Notes: generated from the letters alone by a model not told the origin. Positions 13,712 through 22,117 are shown, counted from the stretch's first letter. The stretch: DNA of 64,000 nt from an uncultured delta proteobacterium (GCA_963724765.1 CAVRVY010000004.1:1408001-1472000), one strand, 5' to 3'. Numbers and translations are program-made.

Positions 13712-14605
13712 CTACATCCCAATCAGATCGGCCCGCTCGATGACGTGGCGAATGCCGCGCACGGACGCGACGTCGATCATCACGCCCTCGTAAGTCACGG
13801 CGCCAAGTCCGTCGGCCTCGGCCTTGGCATAGACCTCGGCCATCTTGCGCGCGCGCGCAACCTCATCCTTGGTCGGCGAATACACTTCGTTGGCGAGATC
13901 GATCTGGCTCGGATGAATCGCCCATTTGCCGACGAAGCCGAGTATCGACGCCCAGGTCGCCTCGCGCCGGTAGCCGTCGGGGTCGTGAAAGTCGGCGAAT
14001 GGGCCGTCGATCGCATCGATTCCCGCCGCGCGCGCCGCAACCACGATCTTGTTGCGCGCGTAATGCCACATGTCACCCGGATAGCCCGCGGCGCCCTTGG
14101 CCGGAAAACGTACGCCCTGCGAAGCGCTGAAGTCGCCAGGGCCGAAAATGATCGCTTCCAGGCGCGGCGTGCATCGCGCGATCTCTTCGACATTGATCAG
14201 CGCCTGCACTTCCTCAATTAGCACTTCGAGCCCGATGCGCCGTTTGCGCTTGAGCCTCATCTCGACGCCCGAGAGCAAGGTGTCGACGAACCAGAGATCG
14301 CGCGGCGCCTTGACCTTCGGAATGATTATCAGGTCTAGGTTGTCGCCGGCCTTCTCGGCAAGCTCGATCACTTCTTGGTAGGCGTATTCGGTCTCGACAT
14401 TGTTGATGCGGACGGCGCGGGTTTTCTTGCCCCAGTTAAGGCCGTTCAGCGCGTCGATAACCCGCTTGCGTGCGGCCACCTTTTCGTTCGGCGCGACCGA
14501 ATCCTCCAGATCGAGGAAGACGAGATCGGCGGTGCTGGCCGCCGCGCGCTCAATCATCCGCTCGTTGCTGCCCGGGGTGGAGAGTTCCGACCTGCGAAGA
14601 CGCAT
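13712..14605 (-). CDS. CitE/HpcH-family CoA-ester lyase (malyl-/beta-methylmalyl-/citramalyl-CoA lyase-like)
   Basis: RRSELSTPGSN, DLVFLDLEDSVAP, VRIN, FGPGDFSASQG, DGPF, GKWAIHPSQI. Confidence 0.9.
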   Translation of the reverse strand: MRLRRSELSTPGSNERMIERAAASTADLVFLDLEDSVAPNEKVAARKRVIDALNGLNWGKKTRAVRINNVETEYAYQEVIELAEKAGDNLDLIIIPKVKAPRDLWFVDTLLSGVEMRLKRKRRIGLEVLIEEVQALINVEEIARCTPRLEAIIFGPGDFSASQGVRFPAKGAAGYPGDMWHYARNKIVVAARAAGIDAIDGPFADFHDPDGYRREATWASILGFVGKWAIHPSQIDLANEVYSPTKDEVARARKMAEVYAKAEADGLGAVTYEGVMIDVASVRGIRHVIERADLIGM

Positions 14606-14707
14606 CGTTGTGGTCCTTTTTGTATAGCTGTCGTGTAGCGTCTGTATAACGCTTGCCTTGCTGCCCGCCGACGGCCGATGCCGCCGAATTTCGCCGGGAG
14701 CGCGCGG

Positions 14708-15394
14708 CTATCGCCGCCGCCGGCGCGCGCCGGCGCCCTTCTTCGCCGCCGCGCCGCGCGCGCGCACTGCGCGCCGCGCCGGCGGCTTCTGCTGCGCCGG
14801 GACGCTCCGCCCCGGCGCGCGCGAGCGTGCCGGCTTCGCCGGCACGCTCGCGCGCAGGTGAAACGCGCGGCGCTTGAGCAACACGCGCCGCTCGCCTTCG
14901 AACACCACCTCGCCGCGCTCGTTCACGCCCCAGTGGCGAAAGCGCACTTCGCCAACCTCGGCGCGGTTGAACCGCGCGAGGTCGGGCCGCCCGGCCGCGG
15001 CCGCGTCAAAGTCGCACGTCTCCATCACTTCGGAAAACGCGTAGAGCGTGTCGCCATGCAGGACGGGGGTTCGAAATCGAATCTTGTCCAGCGCCAGTTC
15101 GGCCAGCGCCTGCTCGCCCGTATCTTCCATCGCCAGGCCGATCACCAGCGAGGCGGTGACGCCGCCGAAGGTGATGCGATGACCGATCGGGTTGGACGCC
15201 ATCAGGTGCTCGTTGAAATGGCCCTGCGCCGTGTTCATCACCAGGTTGGTGATGAGCACGTTGTCGATCTCGCCGACCGTCTTGCCGCGCGCGTGCTCGT
15301 AAACGTCGCCGACGTTGAAGTCCTCGAAGTAATTGTCGCGCCCGGTCAGGTTCTGCGGCCCGGATGCGAATCCATTTCCTGTTTCAGCAGCCAT
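14708..15394 (-). CDS. MaoC-family (R)-hydratase with a basic C-terminal tail
   Basis: NYFEDFNVGDVYEHARGKTVGEIDN...N...HFN, PVLHGDTLYA.SEV. Confidence 0.88.
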   Translation of the reverse strand: MAAETGNGFASGPQNLTGRDNYFEDFNVGDVYEHARGKTVGEIDNVLITNLVMNTAQGHFNEHLMASNPIGHRITFGGVTASLVIGLAMEDTGEQALAELALDKIRFRTPVLHGDTLYAFSEVMETCDFDAAAAGRPDLARFNRAEVGEVRFRHWGVNERGEVVFEGERRVLLKRRAFHLRASVPAKPARSRAPGRSVPAQQKPPARRAVRARGAAAKKGAGARRRRR

Positions 15395-15419
15395 CTTGTC
15401 CGTTCTCGCCTCGCGGCCG

Positions 15420-16574
15420 CTAGTCCTGCGGCCCCAGCAGCCGATCCGAAATCACGCGGAGTTGGATTTGCGAGGTACCCTCGAAAATCTTGGTCAACCG
15501 CGCGTCGCGCCAGTAGCGCTCGATCGCAAAATCCTTGGTGTAGCCGTAACCGCCGTGAATCTGCAGCGCGTCGCTGGTCACCCGCTCGGCCATCTCGGAA
15601 GCGAACCACTTCACCATCGAGGCTTCCTTGTCGCAGCGCCGTTTGCTGTCGACCTCATTGGCGACGAAGTACATGAGCTGGCGCGCGGCCTCTATATTGG
15701 CGGCCATTTCGGCAAGCTTGAAGCGGATCGCCTGGAAGTCGCCGATGGGATGGCCGAATTGCGAGCGGCGCTTGGCGTATTCCACGGAATCGTCCAGCCC
15801 GCCGCGCGCGAGCCCAATCGCGCGCGCCGCCGTATGCACCCGCGCGGTCTCCAGCCCCGACATCATCGCGTAGAATCCGCGCCCTTCCTCGCCCAGCAGG
15901 GCAGCGGCCGGCAGATGAAAGTTGTCGAAGTGCAGCTCGAAAGTCTTCCAGCCGAAGTAGCCGATCTTGCGAATCGGCGATCCCGTAATCCCGGGCGGAA
16001 ATTTGCCGCGCTCTTTTTGGATCAGGAACTGGCTGATGCCGACGTGGCGGCGCTTGGAATCGGTCGGCGGCGAGGTGCGCGCGAACAGCACGATATAATC
16101 GGCGCCGTCGGCGAACGTGCACCAGGTCTTGGTGCCGTTGATCACCCATTCATCGCCCTGGCGCGTGGCCTTGCACGCGACACTGGCGAGGTCCGAACCC
16201 GCGTCGGGCTCGGAAAGCGAAAACGCGCCCAGCCATTCGCCGCGCGCGATTTTCGGAAAATAGCGGCGCTTGTCCTCTTCGGTAACGCCGCCCCACAGCG
16301 AATTGCCGCGCGCGATGATGCTGGCGACGCTCATCCAGGCCCGCGCCAGTTCCTCGGTCACCAGCGCGTACTCGAACGCGCCGAGGCCCAGGCCGCCGTA
16401 CTCCTCGGGAATCAGGATGCCGAAGTAGCCCAGTTCGGCCATCTTGTCGCGCAACGACATCGGGATGTCGCCCTGCTCGGGGTCGAGCTTGTTGGCGATG
16501 GGCAGGACCTGCTCGAGCGCAAAGTCACGCGCCATCTGCTGAATCAGCTTGCGCTCCTCGGTTATGTAACTCAT
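15420..16574 (-). CDS. Acyl-CoA dehydrogenase (methylsuccinyl-CoA dehydrogenase-like by context)
   Basis: FSLSEPDAGSD, NGTKTWCT, R.QFGHPI..FQ, QIHGGYGY, IFEGTSQIQ. Start MSYITEER overlaps the upstream stop (ATGA). Confidence 0.92.
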   Translation of the reverse strand: MSYITEERKLIQQMARDFALEQVLPIANKLDPEQGDIPMSLRDKMAELGYFGILIPEEYGGLGLGAFEYALVTEELARAWMSVASIIARGNSLWGGVTEEDKRRYFPKIARGEWLGAFSLSEPDAGSDLASVACKATRQGDEWVINGTKTWCTFADGADYIVLFARTSPPTDSKRRHVGISQFLIQKERGKFPPGITGSPIRKIGYFGWKTFELHFDNFHLPAAALLGEEGRGFYAMMSGLETARVHTAARAIGLARGGLDDSVEYAKRRSQFGHPIGDFQAIRFKLAEMAANIEAARQLMYFVANEVDSKRRCDKEASMVKWFASEMAERVTSDALQIHGGYGYTKDFAIERYWRDARLTKIFEGTSQIQLRVISDRLLGPQD

Positions 16575-17062
16575 GGATGGGCGTTCCTTTTGCTCACCAG
16601 GTTGGTGCGGCGGAAGTCGATCACCAGCTCGCCGCGGCTGTTGTGCCCCTCGGTGTGCCAACTCACGATTCCACTTTCGGGCCGGCTGGCCGACTCGCGT
16701 TTGTCCAGCACCGTGCTGCGGGCGCTGAGCGTTTCGCCGGGATAGACGGTGCTATGGAATTTCAGATCGTCGACACCCAGGAACAGACCGCCCGCCTCGC
16801 TCAGGTCCTCAACTGAAAGTCCGAAGACCGTCAGGAAAACCAGCATCGGATTCAGCACGACGCTGCCATGGCCGTGGGCACGCGCATAGTCGGCGTTGAA
16901 GTACAGAGGGTTGAAACTGAGCGTCAGGGTCGAGAACAGGCTGTTGTCGCCGTCGTTGAGCGTGCGTCCCCAATGATGCTGGTAGACATGGCCGAGTTTG
17001 AAATCCTCGTAATGATTTCCCTTGGGCCATTTTTTGGCCCGCGATTTGAAATCTTCACTCAT
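16571..17062 (-). CDS. MaoC-family (R)-hydratase
   Basis: GNHYEDFKLG...HHWGRTLNDGDNSLF...NPLYFN, VYPGETL.A.STV. Confidence 0.9.
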   Translation of the reverse strand: MSEDFKSRAKKWPKGNHYEDFKLGHVYQHHWGRTLNDGDNSLFSTLTLSFNPLYFNADYARAHGHGSVVLNPMLVFLTVFGLSVEDLSEAGGLFLGVDDLKFHSTVYPGETLSARSTVLDKRESASRPESGIVSWHTEGHNSRGELVIDFRRTNLVSKRNAHP

Positions 17063-17289
17063 TCCCGTACTCCGAATTCATCCGCCCATGCCGCTGTGGC
17101 AATTGGCGTTAATGCCGATGCGCCCGGTCATAGGAGCATAGACAACCGGCGCCATATTGGCGAGTTTGGCCCCATCGAGGCAAGGCTGCGATCGCTGAGC
17201 CGAGAACCTGTCTTGGACGGTATCTCACCCCATGGTATCGTCACTAATACCGGACGGATGTAGCAAGAGAGACGCGGGAGAGCACCGAT

Positions 17290-17784
17290 ATGCGTAAGTG
17301 GACGGCCTCGATAGCTCTGCTGGCGGTTTTGGCCCTCGCGGGTGCCGCGCCGGCGAGGGCCGGTGGCGGCTCGTCCGCATGGAGCAAGCTTTCGGCGCTG
17401 CTCGGGAACAAGCATGATGCCGACAACTTCAAACTTATCCACGTCGCTGACCTCGCCGCGCTCAGGGCCGATCCAAATTCGCATGTCGTGATCCTCGACG
17501 CCAACGTCCAGGACACGCGCAACAAATACGGCGTGATCCCGGGAGCGCGGCTGCTTCCTTCCTACGACAACTACGACGTTGCGACGGAGCTGCCGCCCGC
17601 GAAAAATGCCAAGCTGGTTTTCTACTGCGCCAATACGCGTTGAATGGCCTCGCACGGCGCCGCCCGGCGGGCGGTCGCAGCAGGCTACACGGACGTGAGC
17701 GTGATGGTCGACGGAATCAAGGGATGGGACGCGGCCGGCCAACCTCACGACCACGCGGCGTCGGCTCAGCACGCGGCGATGTGA
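17290..17784 (+). CDS. Exported rhodanese-domain sulfurtransferase, putative selenoprotein (Sec118, UGA at 17641-17643)
   Basis: Signal peptide ending ARA. ILDAN...IPGA...LVFYCANTR-[TGA]-MASHGAARRAVAAGYTDVSVMVDGIKGW continues the rhodanese fold in frame to TGA 17782-17784. Hairpin downstream of the UGA. Confidence 0.85.
17659..17675 (+). promoter_or_regulatory. Candidate bacterial SECIS hairpin of the rhodanese gene
   Basis: GCCGCCC-GGC-GGGCGGT: 7-bp stem with one G-U pair. The loop starts with G, 23 nt after the UGA. Confidence 0.6.
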
Positions 17785-17869
17785 ACCTTACCGCGTCGGC
17801 ATTCGACCACATCCCGGTAATCATTTTCCTTCGCTGCGGATTTCACCACATTTTGCGACAAGGCATCGC

Positions 17870-19672
17870 GTGGCGCGGCTAACCGGAACATCGCCGGAGG
17901 CCCTCGATACCGCGCCGCGCGAGATCACACCTCGCGCGATCGTGCTTGGCCTTGCACTCGCGTTGCTGCTCGGTGCGGCCAACGCGTATCTCGGGCTGTA
18001 CGCCGGAATGACCGTCTCGGCGAGCATCCCTGCCGCGGTGATTTCGATGGCGGTGCTGCGAGCGCTCGGCCGCGCGACGATTCTCGAAAACAACGTAGTG
18101 CAGACGATAGCCTCGGCCGGAGAAGCGGTCGCGGCGGGCGCGATCTTCACTTTTCCCGCACTCGTGGTGCTGGGCGAGACCGCGGCGCTGCCCTACCGCG
18201 ACGTCACGATGCTGTGTGCGGCGGGGGCCGCGATGGGCAGTCTGCTGGTGGTCTTTTTGCGCCGCGCCTACATCGTCGACGAGCGCCTGCCGTTCCCCGA
18301 AGGCGTCGCATGCGCCGAAGTCTTGCGCGCCGGCGAGGTGGGCGGGGCCAGCGCGTTGCCGCTTTTGTGGGGCGGACTAGCCGCGGCCGCGCTCAAGGCA
18401 TCGCAGGACATCGTCGGCGCGATACCAGGCGCCGTGCAGTCCGCGCGATGGATCGGCACGCGCGTTGTTGCCGGATCGGCCGACCTCTCGGCGGCGCTGC
18501 CGGCCATCGGATACATCGTCGGAATTCGAATCGCTAGCCTGGTCTTCGGGGGCGGCGCCTTCGCCTGGCTCGTCGCGATACCAGTCATGAGCGCGTACCA
18601 TCCCGAGTTGCGCCAGCTCGATCCACAGGTGGCGGCGCACACGATCTGGAGCGGACAGGTGCGCTATCTCGGCGTGGGCGCGATGCTGGTCGGCGGACTC
18701 GCGACGCTATGGCGCCTGCGTACGCCGATTGGACGCGCGCTCGGCGAGAGCATCCGCGTGGCGCGTGCGACTCAGACGGTGGCCGTGGCACGCGAGGACC
18801 GGGACCTCTCGACCACGGCGGTGCTGGGCGCGGTCGCGCTCGCGATCCCGCTCATCTTCGCAATCTGCCTCATTCTGTCGGGTAGCGTATTCCTCAGCGC
18901 GGCGCTCGCGATCGCGCTCGCGTTCATCGGCTTCTTCGCTACCGCGATCGCCGGCTACCTGACCGGAATCGTCGGCGCGTCGAACAATCCAGTTTCCGGC
19001 GTAACGATCATCGTGCTGCTGGCGATCGCTCTGCTGCTGAAACTGTGGGGCGTGCCGGCTGGTGTCGGCCCGCACCTGGCGATCACCGCCGGCGCGGTGG
19101 TGTGCACGGCGGCCGCGATGGCGGGTGACTCCTTGCACGACCTCGCCACCGGATACCACGTCCGCGCGACGCCGCGCTCGCTCGAAATCTCCGTGTTGCT
19201 GGGCGCGCTGGCCTCGTCGCTCGTGATGGCGCCGATCCTCAATATGCTGATTCGCGGCTATGGAATCGCCGGCACGCCGGGCGCGCGCGCCGGTGCGCTG
19301 GCCGCGCCGCAGGCTTTCCTGATGGCGAAAGTGGCGCAGGGCGTTTTCGTGGGCGGCCTGCCGTGGGGCGCGGTCGCCGCGGGCGCGCTGCTCGCCGTGG
19401 CGCTGGTGGTCATCGATCAGATTCTGGAGCGGCGTGGCGCGCGATGGCGGACGCCGGTGATGCCGGTCGCGATCGGGCTTTACCTGCCGTTGGGGCTGAG
19501 CGTGGCGATCTTTCTGGGCTCGCTGACGCGGCTGATGCGCCGTGACGGCGACCGCGAGAGCAATAGCGGCCCGGGGTTGCTGTTCGCAGCCGGACTGGTG
19601 GCCGGCGAGGCGCTGATGGGTGTGCTGAGCGGCGCACTCGTGACCGTGGGAATCAAGCTGCCGCTGATGTGA
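17870..19672 (+). CDS. OPT-family oligopeptide transporter
   Basis: EIT.RA..LG, NAYLGLYAGMTVSASIPAAVIS, ENN.VQT.ASAGE, LPFPEG.ACAEVL, SNNPVSG, APQA.LMA. Many TM helices. Confidence 0.95.
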   Translation: MARLTGTSPEALDTAPREITPRAIVLGLALALLLGAANAYLGLYAGMTVSASIPAAVISMAVLRALGRATILENNVVQTIASAGEAVAAGAIFTFPALVVLGETAALPYRDVTMLCAAGAAMGSLLVVFLRRAYIVDERLPFPEGVACAEVLRAGEVGGASALPLLWGGLAAAALKASQDIVGAIPGAVQSARWIGTRVVAGSADLSAALPAIGYIVGIRIASLVFGGGAFAWLVAIPVMSAYHPELRQLDPQVAAHTIWSGQVRYLGVGAMLVGGLATLWRLRTPIGRALGESIRVARATQTVAVAREDRDLSTTAVLGAVALAIPLIFAICLILSGSVFLSAALAIALAFIGFFATAIAGYLTGIVGASNNPVSGVTIIVLLAIALLLKLWGVPAGVGPHLAITAGAVVCTAAAMAGDSLHDLATGYHVRATPRSLEISVLLGALASSLVMAPILNMLIRGYGIAGTPGARAGALAAPQAFLMAKVAQGVFVGGLPWGAVAAGALLAVALVVIDQILERRGARWRTPVMPVAIGLYLPLGLSVAIFLGSLTRLMRRDGDRESNSGPGLLFAAGLVAGEALMGVLSGALVTVGIKLPLM

Positions 19673-19694: not shown

Positions 19695-19717
19695 ATTGAT
19701 CGCGGCCGCTTGGCAGA

Positions 19718-19732
19718 TGATAATTATTATCA
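19718..19732. promoter_or_regulatory. Perfect 7-1-7 Fur box overlapping the promoter of the Fur/PerR gene
   Basis: TGATAAT-T-ATTATCA ends immediately before the ATG at 19733. TTGATC-N17-GATAAT promoter elements at 19696-19724. Confidence 0.85.
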
Positions 19733-20230
19733 ATGACGGAAGTTAAACTGCTTGACGGGCTGGGACGCGGCGATTACGCCGAGGCCAGGCTCGCGGAATT
19801 CGTCGCCAACTGCCGGCGAAAAAAGATGGCGGTCACGCCGCAGCGGCTCGCCGTGCTGCGCGCGCTGCTCGAATCGGGCGACCATCCGCGCGCCGACCGG
19901 ATCTACGCCCGCGTCCGCCGCGAACATCCACGCATCTCGCTCGCCACCGTCCATCGCACGCTGGAGCGCCTGTGCGACGTCGGCGAGGCGCACAAGGTCA
20001 CGCCGTTGCATGAGACCGCGCGCTACGACGGCAATACCCGCCCGCACCATCATGTCGTTTGCGTCCGATGCAAACGGGTCGAGGATGTCGAGGCGCCTGA
20101 ATTCGACACCCTGCTCGCCGGGCGACAAACGCTCGGCGATTTCCAGTTGCTCGGATGCTCGGTCGAAGTGCGCGCGCTGTGCCATCGATGCCTCAAGCGC
20201 ACTGCCAGCCACTCCCCGTCGATAGCCTGA
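19733..20230 (+). CDS. Fur-family transcriptional repressor (PerR-like)
   Basis: TPQRLAVL, HP.A..IY, SLATVHRTL, RYDGN..PHHHVVCVRC, C-terminal CHRC. Confidence 0.93.
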   Translation: MTEVKLLDGLGRGDYAEARLAEFVANCRRKKMAVTPQRLAVLRALLESGDHPRADRIYARVRREHPRISLATVHRTLERLCDVGEAHKVTPLHETARYDGNTRPHHHVVCVRCKRVEDVEAPEFDTLLAGRQTLGDFQLLGCSVEVRALCHRCLKRTASHSPSIA

Positions 20231-20236
20231 GCACGC

Positions 20237-22117
20237 TTGCGGCGCTGGGTAGTCATCGCCGCGATCCTCATCATCTTATGCGTGCATGGCGCGCTGTTGC
20301 TCTCGACGCTGACGGACCTGCGCGTCACGCTCGACTCCGGCTATCACGTTTCGCTCGCGCGCGCATACGCCGAGCACGGACTGGTACCCTGGGACCATAT
20401 CAATTTCGGGCCCGCCGGGCGGCCCAATTTGCAGGCCCCGCTGATGTATATGGCAGTCGGCGCGATAGGCCGTGCGATGGGCGGGAGGGGCGGCGATTAC
20501 GTACTCGCCAACGCGATGCTCGCGGCCGTACAATGGGCGGCGGCGATGGCGACCGCGGCCTTCTTCGCGCTGTTGCTCGGCGGCGAATGGGCGATGCTGC
20601 TGGCGGCGGCGCTGCTCAGCGGCGCCGGCTTCGCCGCGACCTCGTTCGCGATCGGAATTCCGTCGGGATGGCTCTTCATCCTGATTCCGTGGGCGATCCA
20701 TTTTTTTCTGCGCCGGCGTCTCGTGCTGGCAACGATCATCATCTCCGCGGCCATTTACGTCCACATCGCCGGCCTGGTCACGGCACCGCTTGGAATCGTG
20801 GTGGCCGCGGTGCTCAGCCGCCGATGGCGCGATCTCCTTTTGGTCGGAATCGCCACCGCGATCATCACCGCCCCTTACTCCGTGCATTGCCTGCGCTACG
20901 TCGGATGGTTCAGCGGAGTGCGCAACTACTCGGCATTGCTATTCGATCCGATGCTCGACGTGCTCGGACTCGTCGGTCTCGTCGCAGCACTCAGGCATCC
21001 GCGCGACAATGCCCTGCTGGTCGCATGGGCGGCCGCGCCTGTGGCGTGGCTTTTTCAGGACCCGAGCCGATTTATCCTGCAATCAGGGCTGGCGGCGAGC
21101 GTGCTAGCGGCGGTTTGGCTGGTGGCGCGGCTCGCACGGATGCGCGGCACGCCTCGCACGGTATGCGTTGCCATAATAACGGCGATCGCAACGCTCTGTC
21201 CGTTTGGAGTGCCCGCGCTGGCAACCGAAGTGGCGTGGTCGCTCGGGTTTCGTTATCCGCGAGCCATCGATTGGAAAAGCGCCGAGACACTTGCCGGCGT
21301 GATCCAGCATAACGATCTTTCCGGAAAACTGGTCTCCGATTACCAACCTTCGCTATGCCCTGCGATCGCGGTCTATGCGCCAATCTCCTGCGACAAGGGC
21401 CACTGGGTTGAAGTACAGCCGCAGGTCGATCCAGCCGACGCGCTTTCCGCCGCGCGCAAGGTCTACGTGCTTGCGCTAAAGTCCGACGACACTGCGCTCG
21501 AGGCGATGGCGCGGCGCGGTTGGCTGCGGGTGTGGGGCGGAACGAGCGGAACGGCCGATTCAACCGTAGTGACCCTTGCCGCGCGTGCTCCACTCGACGC
21601 CGCATCCGCGGCTGTCGGGCAAATGGTCGCGACCGAGGCCGCCTGGCTGTCCTCGCACGCAGTCAACAACTCGTTTCGCGGTGGCGACTGGCTGGCGATG
21701 CTCTCGCCGGTGGCGATGCAAACCCGCCGCGCCCGGTTGCTTGAACAACGCGAGCGCGCGGGACGAATTCAGCTGGCGCTCCTCGTTTATGCGTATGCGC
21801 TGGAGCCCGATTTTCCGCGGCAGGCGGCGCGGATACGGCGCGCGGCGCGCGCCTTCGGTGTGATCGCGAGTTTTTTGGGCGACGGTCTCGCACTCGACTT
21901 CGAAAACGACGCGGCGACGGCGCGATTGAAATGGCGGCTTGGATTGCTCGCGTCTGCGGCGCAATCGACGGGTCGGCAGCCGCCTCCCGACATGGAACTC
22001 GAGCGCGCGCTGGACGAGACGCTCGAGGTTTACCTGGTTACGAAGGGCGCAACCTTCGCCGAGCGGCCGCCGGAAAATCCTCTGCCATGGCTTTCCGCGC
22101 TGCCGTCGGCGCACTGA
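20237..22117 (+). CDS. Polytopic membrane protein, possibly GT-C fold glycosyltransferase-like
   Basis: TM1 followed by DSGYH...WD...GP.G.PN...PL loop, about 10 TM segments, soluble C-terminal domain. TTG start 6 nt after the fur stop. Confidence 0.65.
   Translation: MRRWVVIAAILIILCVHGALLLSTLTDLRVTLDSGYHVSLARAYAEHGLVPWDHINFGPAGRPNLQAPLMYMAVGAIGRAMGGRGGDYVLANAMLAAVQWAAAMATAAFFALLLGGEWAMLLAAALLSGAGFAATSFAIGIPSGWLFILIPWAIHFFLRRRLVLATIIISAAIYVHIAGLVTAPLGIVVAAVLSRRWRDLLLVGIATAIITAPYSVHCLRYVGWFSGVRNYSALLFDPMLDVLGLVGLVAALRHPRDNALLVAWAAAPVAWLFQDPSRFILQSGLAASVLAAVWLVARLARMRGTPRTVCVAIITAIATLCPFGVPALATEVAWSLGFRYPRAIDWKSAETLAGVIQHNDLSGKLVSDYQPSLCPAIAVYAPISCDKGHWVEVQPQVDPADALSAARKVYVLALKSDDTALEAMARRGWLRVWGGTSGTADSTVVTLAARAPLDAASAAVGQMVATEAAWLSSHAVNNSFRGGDWLAMLSPVAMQTRRARLLEQRERAGRIQLALLVYAYALEPDFPRQAARIRRAARAFGVIASFLGDGLALDFENDAATARLKWRLGLLASAAQSTGRQPPPDMELERALDETLEVYLVTKGATFAERPPENPLPWLSALPSAH

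Follow-up and report, generated by a model that had tools for sequence, protein, structure and literature searches.

The window is a 64,000-nucleotide stretch of one contig from an uncultured delta proteobacterium of soil (GCA_963724765.1, CAVRVY010000004.1:1408001-1472000), whose genome assembly has 4 contigs and 5.4 Mb; positions are counted from the first letter of the window unless a contig is named. A 117-amino-acid (aa) open reading frame on the plus strand (17290-17643), preceded 7 nt 5' of its ATG by the Shine-Dalgarno-like GGGAGAG (17276-17282, plus strand; read off the sequence), closes at TGA 17641-17643 right after ...KLVFYCANTR, in the middle of what an initial annotation had recognized as a rhodanese active-site loop. 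Beyond this TGA the frame runs on as MASHGAARRAVAAGYTDVSVMVDGIKGW..., up to a second TGA (17782-17784). With the first TGA translated as selenocysteine (U), the product is 164 aa long and has C113 and U118 in the loop C113-A-N-T-R-U118. Pfam Rhodanese (PF00581) spans the TGA (residues 53 to 148; 44.2 bits against a cut-off of 22.2), and translation and Pfam match together bear out the continuation to a 164-aa C113xxxxU118 protein that had been proposed. Aligned homologs share the ...AAM terminus of this read-through product. The predicted full selenoprotein gene (17290-17784, plus strand) comprises 164 codons, with UGA for selenocysteine (Sec) as codon 118 and TGA 17782-17784 as the true stop. 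The TGC at 17626-17628 (plus strand) encodes Cys113, which stands where strand 108-112 ends and is the canonical catalytic cysteine of rhodaneses.

An OPT-family transporter gene (17870-19672, plus strand; TIGR00733, 528 bits; PF03169) lies 86 nt downstream of the rhodanese gene. No terminator-like site was found between the two genes, which are probably co-transcribed. An OPT homolog (63 to 93% identity) stands directly downstream in 63 of 94 homologous loci and is often kept where the upstream acyl-CoA genes are not; 31 loci have no OPT neighbor, and the distant Cys homologs outside Binataceae are also without one. The loci L035, L077, L084, and L125, which form one clade, have their rhodanese copies in tandem directly upstream of HlyD/CusB-like and AcrB-like RND efflux genes, with OPT missing. 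The next gene of the window encodes a Fur-family regulator (19733-20230, plus strand; PF01475) that is matched best by PerR models, all below their cut-offs, and has its own promoter-like site at 19696-19724. It was not seen beside the rhodanese gene in homolog loci taken with 3-kb flanks, and its link to the rhodanese is uncertain. Farther on, 20237-22117 (plus strand) encodes a 626-aa predicted membrane protein without a Pfam or NCBIfam match. On the other side, a divergent cluster (13712-17062, minus strand) encodes an HpcH/HpaI-type lyase, two MaoC/mesaconyl-CoA-hydratase-like proteins, and an acyl-CoA dehydrogenase; the cluster belongs to ordinary acyl-CoA metabolism, and about a third of the loci share its synteny.

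The AlphaFold model of the product (29 sequences; mean pLDDT, 80.7) has a pLDDT of >90 over roughly residues 44 to 155, with 10-residue blocks at 89 to 97 between residues 51 and 150, and low confidence in residues 1 to 27, and it places a strand at 108-112, a loop at 113-119, and a helix at 120-130. The top structural matches are rhodanese-like (6mxv, 3nhv, 2hhg, YgaP, Sud, TSTD1, and Cdc25B), and C113 aligns with the catalytic-loop Cys of 6mxv. The protein falls within PF00581 by its score above the cut-off and its catalytic Cys after the central strand, and model and fold matches agree. Since the alignment with 6mxv has a two-residue gap, the modeled active-site loop has seven residues (C113-A-N-T-R-U118-M), with Sec at the sixth, against the usual six.

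In the N terminus (MRKWTASIALLAVLALAGAAPARA/GGG), a basic start is followed by a 17-residue hydrophobic core and an A-x-A motif (A-R-A), and there is neither a twin arginine nor a lipobox; P21 and A22 are nearly invariant in the alignment. A Sec-pathway signal peptide is predicted over residues 1 to 24 (17290-17361, plus strand), with A-R-A before the predicted cut. A crude export rule, which asks for a basic residue, a 12-residue Kyte-Doolittle mean of ≥1.6, and a small-x-small motif, picked out 119 of 121 family proteins, the two misses looking N-terminally cut. These sequence features, which agree with the signal peptide of the initial annotation, suggest that the product is exported by the Sec pathway and that the 24-residue signal peptide is removed. 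Longer, fused relatives of the rhodanese protein were not found in a search that had little power.

A protein search gave 654 relatives at an E value of ≤0.001. Among the 120 matches listed, 29 have a Pfam rhodanese annotation, and 91 database clusters are short forms of 104 to 157 aa that cover 51 to 74% of the query and include the 117-aa open reading frame of the window itself. Where NCBI gives the short forms a name, it is "hypothetical protein" of Candidatus Binataceae. They end at the TGA, just as had been foreseen for standard gene callers.

C113 is invariant in the aligned proteins (29 of 29), and Cys stands at the TGA column in 28 of 28 full-length database homologs aligned (19 of 19 in an earlier alignment). 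In a six-frame search of 61 related genomes, most of the family gave strong matches that contain one in-frame TGA; exactly this codon was TGA in 32 of the loci found and TGC or TGT in 5, and within the same genus it was TGA in 14 of 16 other genomes and a Cys codon in 2. With 80 loci added from a collection of species-representative genomes, 127 homologous sites gave 104 distinct sequences in 94 loci (74 TGA, 23 TGC, and 7 TGT). The in-frame UGA is aligned with Cys of homologs, as in bacterial selenoproteins at large: the Cys that the initial annotation had looked for occupies 30 of the 104 distinct genomic sites and TGA the other 74. By their record titles, nearly all sites come from Binataceae or unclassified "delta proteobacterium" MAGs, and Cys stands at the TGA position in the few relatives from Myxococcota and Bdellovibrionota. 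On the best tree of 103 rows, the site switches between Sec and Cys at least 16 times, with only 4 of these changes on well-supported branches; in the 4 supported contrasts, too few for significance, the hairpin described below accompanied Sec in a mean of 3.7 (sign test, p 0.125).

Two further observations concern the same codon. A TGA form and a Cys form of the exported rhodanese stand in tandem in 8 of the 94 loci (L035, L041, L069, L071, L087, L089, L097, and L125), and L077 and L084 have two Cys forms each; the mixed tandem copies may be a selenium-dependent enzyme paired with a selenium-independent backup. Of the 74 TGA forms, 72 have T as the last base of the codon before TGA (His in 55, Arg in 11, and Leu in 7 forms), and 71 have A as the base after TGA; the Cys forms have no such flanking-codon preference, and the commonest residue before their Cys is Gln. 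The bias around the TGA may reflect what Sec insertion requires of its context, or else a His-Sec pair in catalysis.

An assembly or sequencing error that turned TGC or TGT into TGA, which had been named as a possible refutation, is vanishingly improbable, as the TGA stands in an independent assembly (a contig from a different study's run, identical over 17353-17674) and in 73 other distinct sequences, which come from independent assemblies. The site is further covered by a DNA contig of a relative and by RNA-library contigs of relatives, with no other letter listed at 17641-17643; in run X16 (RNA library) only relatives' contigs with <95% identity lie on the stretch, and transcription of the source gene is not claimed.

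If TGA 17641-17643 were a true stop, the gene would be a pseudogene or encode a 117-residue truncated product, and the downstream frame would be a relic. Gene callers do annotate the rhodanese gene as ending at this TGA, and the single-sequence fold 3' of it is unremarkable (see below), but we consider a true stop very unlikely. The TGA is kept in 74 distinct sequences over many genera, and the rhodanese domain requires the helix and strand that are encoded 3' of it. Over the next 24 codons, a further in-frame stop occurs in 0 of the 74 TGA forms, and change is third-position dominated, with 126, 174, and 512 differences from the consensus at codon positions 1, 2, and 3, respectively, and 388 synonymous versus 213 nonsynonymous codon differences. 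Judged by this pattern of substitution, the codons 3' of the TGA are under protein-coding constraint and translated. A true stop would also leave unexplained a hairpin that is conserved only together with the TGA.

This SECIS-like apical hairpin (17657-17678, plus strand) has a 6-bp core (17660-17665 with 17669-17674) and the triloop GGC (17666-17668); in the source sequence, U17675 is bulged and the stem is longer by three more pairs. Its G-first loop starts 22 nt after the A of the UGA, which fits the 23 nt claimed for it at the outset. Single-sequence folding was not better than chance (z = −0.47 over 86 nt, with 64 of 200 shuffles as good; z = −1.11 over 60 nt, with 28 of 200 shuffles folding as well), and an Rfam scan of 17200-17900 gave chance-level matches only, without a matching model. 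It is the comparison of homologs, not single-sequence stability, that places the hairpin beyond chance. Across the 74 TGA forms, an 8-pair helix is paired in 90.7% of 592 cells, a level reached by 0 of 500 shuffles (slid controls, 27.7 to 59.1%), and its inner six pairs are intact in 68 to 74 of the 74 forms; in the 30 Cys forms, pairing of the same columns drops to 67.1% of 240 cells, a level that 108 of 500 shuffles attained. Three pairs of the helix have two-sided changes (CG to GC, CG to UA, and GC to AU), and covariation is thin (8 double-change cells) because the helix is nearly invariant in the TGA forms. From the 74 TGA forms, RNAalifold recovered just the inner 5 hairpin pairs, together with a short second helix. 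The triloop in these forms is GGC (53), GUC (19), GGA (1), or GUA (1).

Among the sequences with AARRA as the peptide over the hairpin, 65 of 71 TGA forms have a perfect 6-bp core, versus 2 of 16 Cys forms, a contrast that a Fisher test overstates, the homologs being related. Synonymous differences per codon per sequence over the five codons of the hairpin amount to 0.086 in the TGA forms versus 0.373 in the Cys forms, and the codons before and after the hairpin in the TGA forms have 0.305 and 0.235, respectively. Since synonymous change is suppressed in the TGA forms alone, the RNA constraint exists only where the TGA is present. The gene has, like bacterial selenoprotein genes, a stem-loop shortly 3' of the UGA that is conserved with it; the joint conservation that the initial annotation had proposed to look for in relatives is there, with the hairpin accompanying the TGA and decayed in the Cys forms.

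The source genome encodes tRNA-Sec (70.2 bits; anticodon UCA), SelA, SelB, and a SelD whose own gene has an in-frame TGA; all four of the genes that were to be looked for (selA, selB, selC, and selD) are present, as befits a bacterial selenoprotein. The TGA-bearing selD (L011, G000:C3:1462704-1463874) directly adjoins selB. A 6-bp stem with a GGA triloop comes 11 nt after the selD UGA, in a style like that of the element in the rhodanese gene. SelA occurs in 57 of 61 related genomes (totals that take in G033, on which no conclusion depends), including 32 of 32 searched genomes with the TGA form, and also in 5 of 5 Cys-only genomes, so its presence is a necessary condition and not a discriminating one. 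SelB carrying Sec-tRNA(Sec) would bind the hairpin, with its loop 22 nt past the UGA, and insert Sec at residue 118, a step that we infer from established bacterial Sec decoding.

Decoding of the UGA as Cys or another standard residue, through a SelC*-type tRNA-Cys or a reassigned code, has some precedent, since a UCA-anticodon SelC* tRNA-Cys reads UGA as Cys in some deltaproteobacteria, going by the available text of PMC5389517, and the tRNA-Sec model matches a second gene of the source genome at 61.9 bits. We nonetheless regard it as highly improbable: the anticodon of the second tRNA is GCA, not UCA, and so reads UGC/UGU; a bona fide tRNA-Sec (UCA) is present together with selA, selB, and selD; and TGA also terminates the rhodanese gene, which means that the code is not reassigned. 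The second tRNA-Sec-like gene (L002, 1501-1589, minus strand; G000:C4:64277-64365; RF01852, cut-off of 47) has, besides its cysteine anticodon, what looks like a U discriminator, and it is similar to the "SelC* tRNA-Cys" of PMC5389517, which the available portion of that paper lists from Firmicutes, Thermodesulfobacteria, Nitrospirae, and Proteobacteria. No open reading frame of ≥120 aa was found in the 3 kb around this gene.

The assignment of TGA 17641-17643 (plus strand) as U118 draws on the TGA and Cys counts in homologs, the Sec machinery, and the independent assembly. The apparent stop in the rhodanese gene is almost certainly read as selenocysteine. On the sequence evidence, the rhodanese gene is a genuine, conserved, and mis-annotated selenoprotein gene; the function set out below is a prediction.

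A second CxxxxU rhodanese selenoprotein candidate lies in the source genome about 17 kb before the window (L131, 992-2329, minus strand; G000 contig C4, about 1389991-1391328). Its N-terminal rhodanese domain, without a signal peptide, has the loop C-A-K-F-T-U; its fusion partner is a potassium-channel domain (Pfam Ion_trans_2; TVGYG-type filter). A hairpin in the same style as those of selD and the exported rhodanese gene (6-bp stem, triloop GUC) starts 12 nt after the TGA of this candidate. Matches with a single in-frame TGA lie about 35 kb from the exported rhodanese in five related genomes (G001, G003, G004, G005, and G007).

The best explanation overall, which we hold with high though not complete confidence, is that 17290-17784 is one gene for a 164-residue selenoprotein, with decoding, export, and redox mechanism as predicted here. 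The mature protein would consist of one rhodanese domain in which the catalytic Cys is kept and a Sec is added five residues later. An invariant Cys together with an invariant Cys/Sec position points to a selenenylsulfide-forming redox pair: one of C113 and U118 would take up sulfur, selenium, or another electrophilic substrate, and the other would resolve the substrate adduct as an internal selenenylsulfide. The rhodanese-DsbD fusion in the protein TsoB suggests that the selenenylsulfide would be re-reduced from the membrane by a DsbD-type electron transporter. The source genome has a separate canonical DsbD (676 aa, matching TsoB positions 166-571), whose gene (L132; G000:C3, about 858518-860548) lies on another contig than the rhodanese gene and about 4 kb from selA. 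The conservation of an OPT transporter downstream points to a role in uptake: the enzyme may prepare or set free a small molecule or peptide that bears a thiol, sulfur, or selenium. The rhodanese would be a periplasmic Cys/Sec redox or chalcogen-transfer enzyme, and selenoproteins of known function are mostly redox enzymes, according to the text available from PMC9312934.

Two other functions have to be weighed for a real selenoprotein at this locus. It could serve a periplasmic metal or metalloid, reducing or binding arsenate, selenite, tellurite, or soft metals of the Cu/Ag/Hg type, with the Cys/Sec pair as ligand or reductant; this we think quite improbable. Seven residues is the loop length of Cdc25/Acr2-type members of the rhodanese fold, and Cdc25B is among the structural matches, but residue 119, which takes the place of the CX5R arginine, is Met instead of Arg. 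The RND efflux genes directly downstream of the tandem copies of one clade would suit a role in metal handling, yet that neighborhood is found in only 4 of the 94 loci; likewise, the Fur-family regulator gene downstream in the window is not conserved beside the rhodanese gene in wider loci. A His-rich C-terminal tail is compatible with metals, as is the OPT neighbor, OPT relatives of plants being carriers of metal chelates; ars, cop, and mer genes, however, were not seen beside the rhodanese gene.

Alternatively, the selenoprotein could be a classical sulfur or selenium carrier and not an oxidoreductase: C113 would form a persulfide without DsbD-type reduction, and U118 would tune the reactivity of C113 or take over the sulfane sulfur or selenium for delivery. 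This is possible, if on the unlikely side. The rhodanese fold and the catalytic Cys are conserved, the structural neighbors include the sulfurtransferases YgaP, TSTD1, and RDL2 and the periplasmic polysulfide-sulfur transferase Sud, and no DsbD gene adjoins the rhodanese gene in the window. A plain carrier does not account well for the seven-residue loop, which has a two-residue gap against 6mxv and is without the usual loop pattern, nor for a second Cys/Sec that is invariant family-wide, as is typical of resolving pairs; the closest curated relative, TsoB, is moreover fused to DsbD in the description available for it.

Returning to the Cys/Sec redox pair, we offer one wider proposal speculatively and think it rather unlikely as a whole. 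C/U-x4-U in a seven-residue rhodanese loop would be an unrecognized catalytic class that Binataceae use in at least two settings. In one, the exported enzyme would work with the OPT importer as a periplasmic module that processes sulfur- or selenium-bearing peptides or thiols so that they can be taken up, possibly for selenium scavenging; in the other, the cytoplasmic domain on a potassium channel would be a selenenylsulfide switch gating ion flow by redox state. Compared with the exported rhodanese, the ion channel with its Sec-bearing sensor domain may be the more novel of the two.

The mis-annotation is systematic, so that a selenoprotein goes missing from annotations and metabolic reconstructions of a lineage widespread in soil and peat. 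The many Sec-to-Cys switches and the tandem Sec and Cys pairs are a natural experiment that can help in asking what Sec adds at the resolving position. The linkage to OPT offers a route to the function of bacterial OPT transporters, which to our knowledge are poorly characterized.

Among known systems, Escherichia coli PspE and Wolinella Sud, both periplasmic single-domain rhodaneses, share with the protein described here a small exported rhodanese domain, and Sud (1qxn) is among the structural matches. They have one catalytic Cys in a six-residue loop and, unlike the source rhodanese, are not known to have a second Cys or Sec or any selenium. Sec-rhodaneses, which the initial annotation gave as predicted in some bacteria, are an established predicted kind: the available text of the 2026 review PMC13188914 gives five forms, namely, UxxS, UxxG, CxU (NF041203), UxxG, and TsoB with UxxxxU, the earlier of which are tabulated in PMC9312934 and PMC1088965, as far as those papers were available. 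A search of the literature library used here did not find the CxxxxU motif, although supplementary tables of the selenoproteome surveys cited in PMC13188914 and PMC5029168 may list the family; nor did it find Binatia together with selenocysteine, and it met TsoB as a selenoprotein only in the 2026 review PMC13188914.

Forms 1, 2, and 4 (UxxS and UxxG, including the Sargasso Sea "rhodanese-related sulfurtransferase" of PMC1088965) have a rhodanese fold, UGA-encoded Sec, and Cys homologs, as here, in the portions of the sources at hand. Judged by the motifs given in the accessible text of PMC9312934 and PMC13188914, their Sec replaces the catalytic Cys; the source rhodanese lies outside these forms, its catalytic position being the TGC-encoded Cys113 and its Sec an added second residue. 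Form 3 (rhodanese_LYCAU, NF041203, CxU) is likewise a single rhodanese domain that keeps the catalytic Cys and has Sec downstream in the loop, but its Sec lies two residues past the Cys, against five in the source rhodanese, which scores 36.2 bits on that model against a cut-off of 115.

TsoB (NF045694) is the best NCBIfam match, with residues 43 to 160 on profile positions 39-163 of 572. It is described in the available text of PMC13188914 as "rhodanese form 5," a rhodanese/DsbD fusion with UxxxxU and two Sec. The two proteins have in common an N-terminal rhodanese domain with two chalcogen residues at the same spacing (xxxx), and both presumably act outside the cytoplasm, going by the signal peptide here and the nDsbD position in TsoB. 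The source rhodanese stays outside the TsoB family (46.2 bits against a cut-off of 805), with 164 aa, no DsbD part, and one TGA. TsoB has two Sec, whereas the source rhodanese has one and a Cys at the first position, UxxxxU and C113..U118 being matched by motif only; TsoB also has a DsbD membrane and thioredoxin-like part that the source rhodanese lacks, DsbD being a separate gene on another contig. Of the five published forms, as given in the available text, none has Cys at the catalytic position and Sec five residues later, TsoB being the nearest. By the rule of the field that the same domain with a different Sec motif is a separate subfamily (PMC9312934, in its available part), the CxxxxU rhodanese would be a sixth rhodanese selenoprotein form. 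The novelty lies in the CxxxxU form and its setting, not in a Sec-rhodanese as such.
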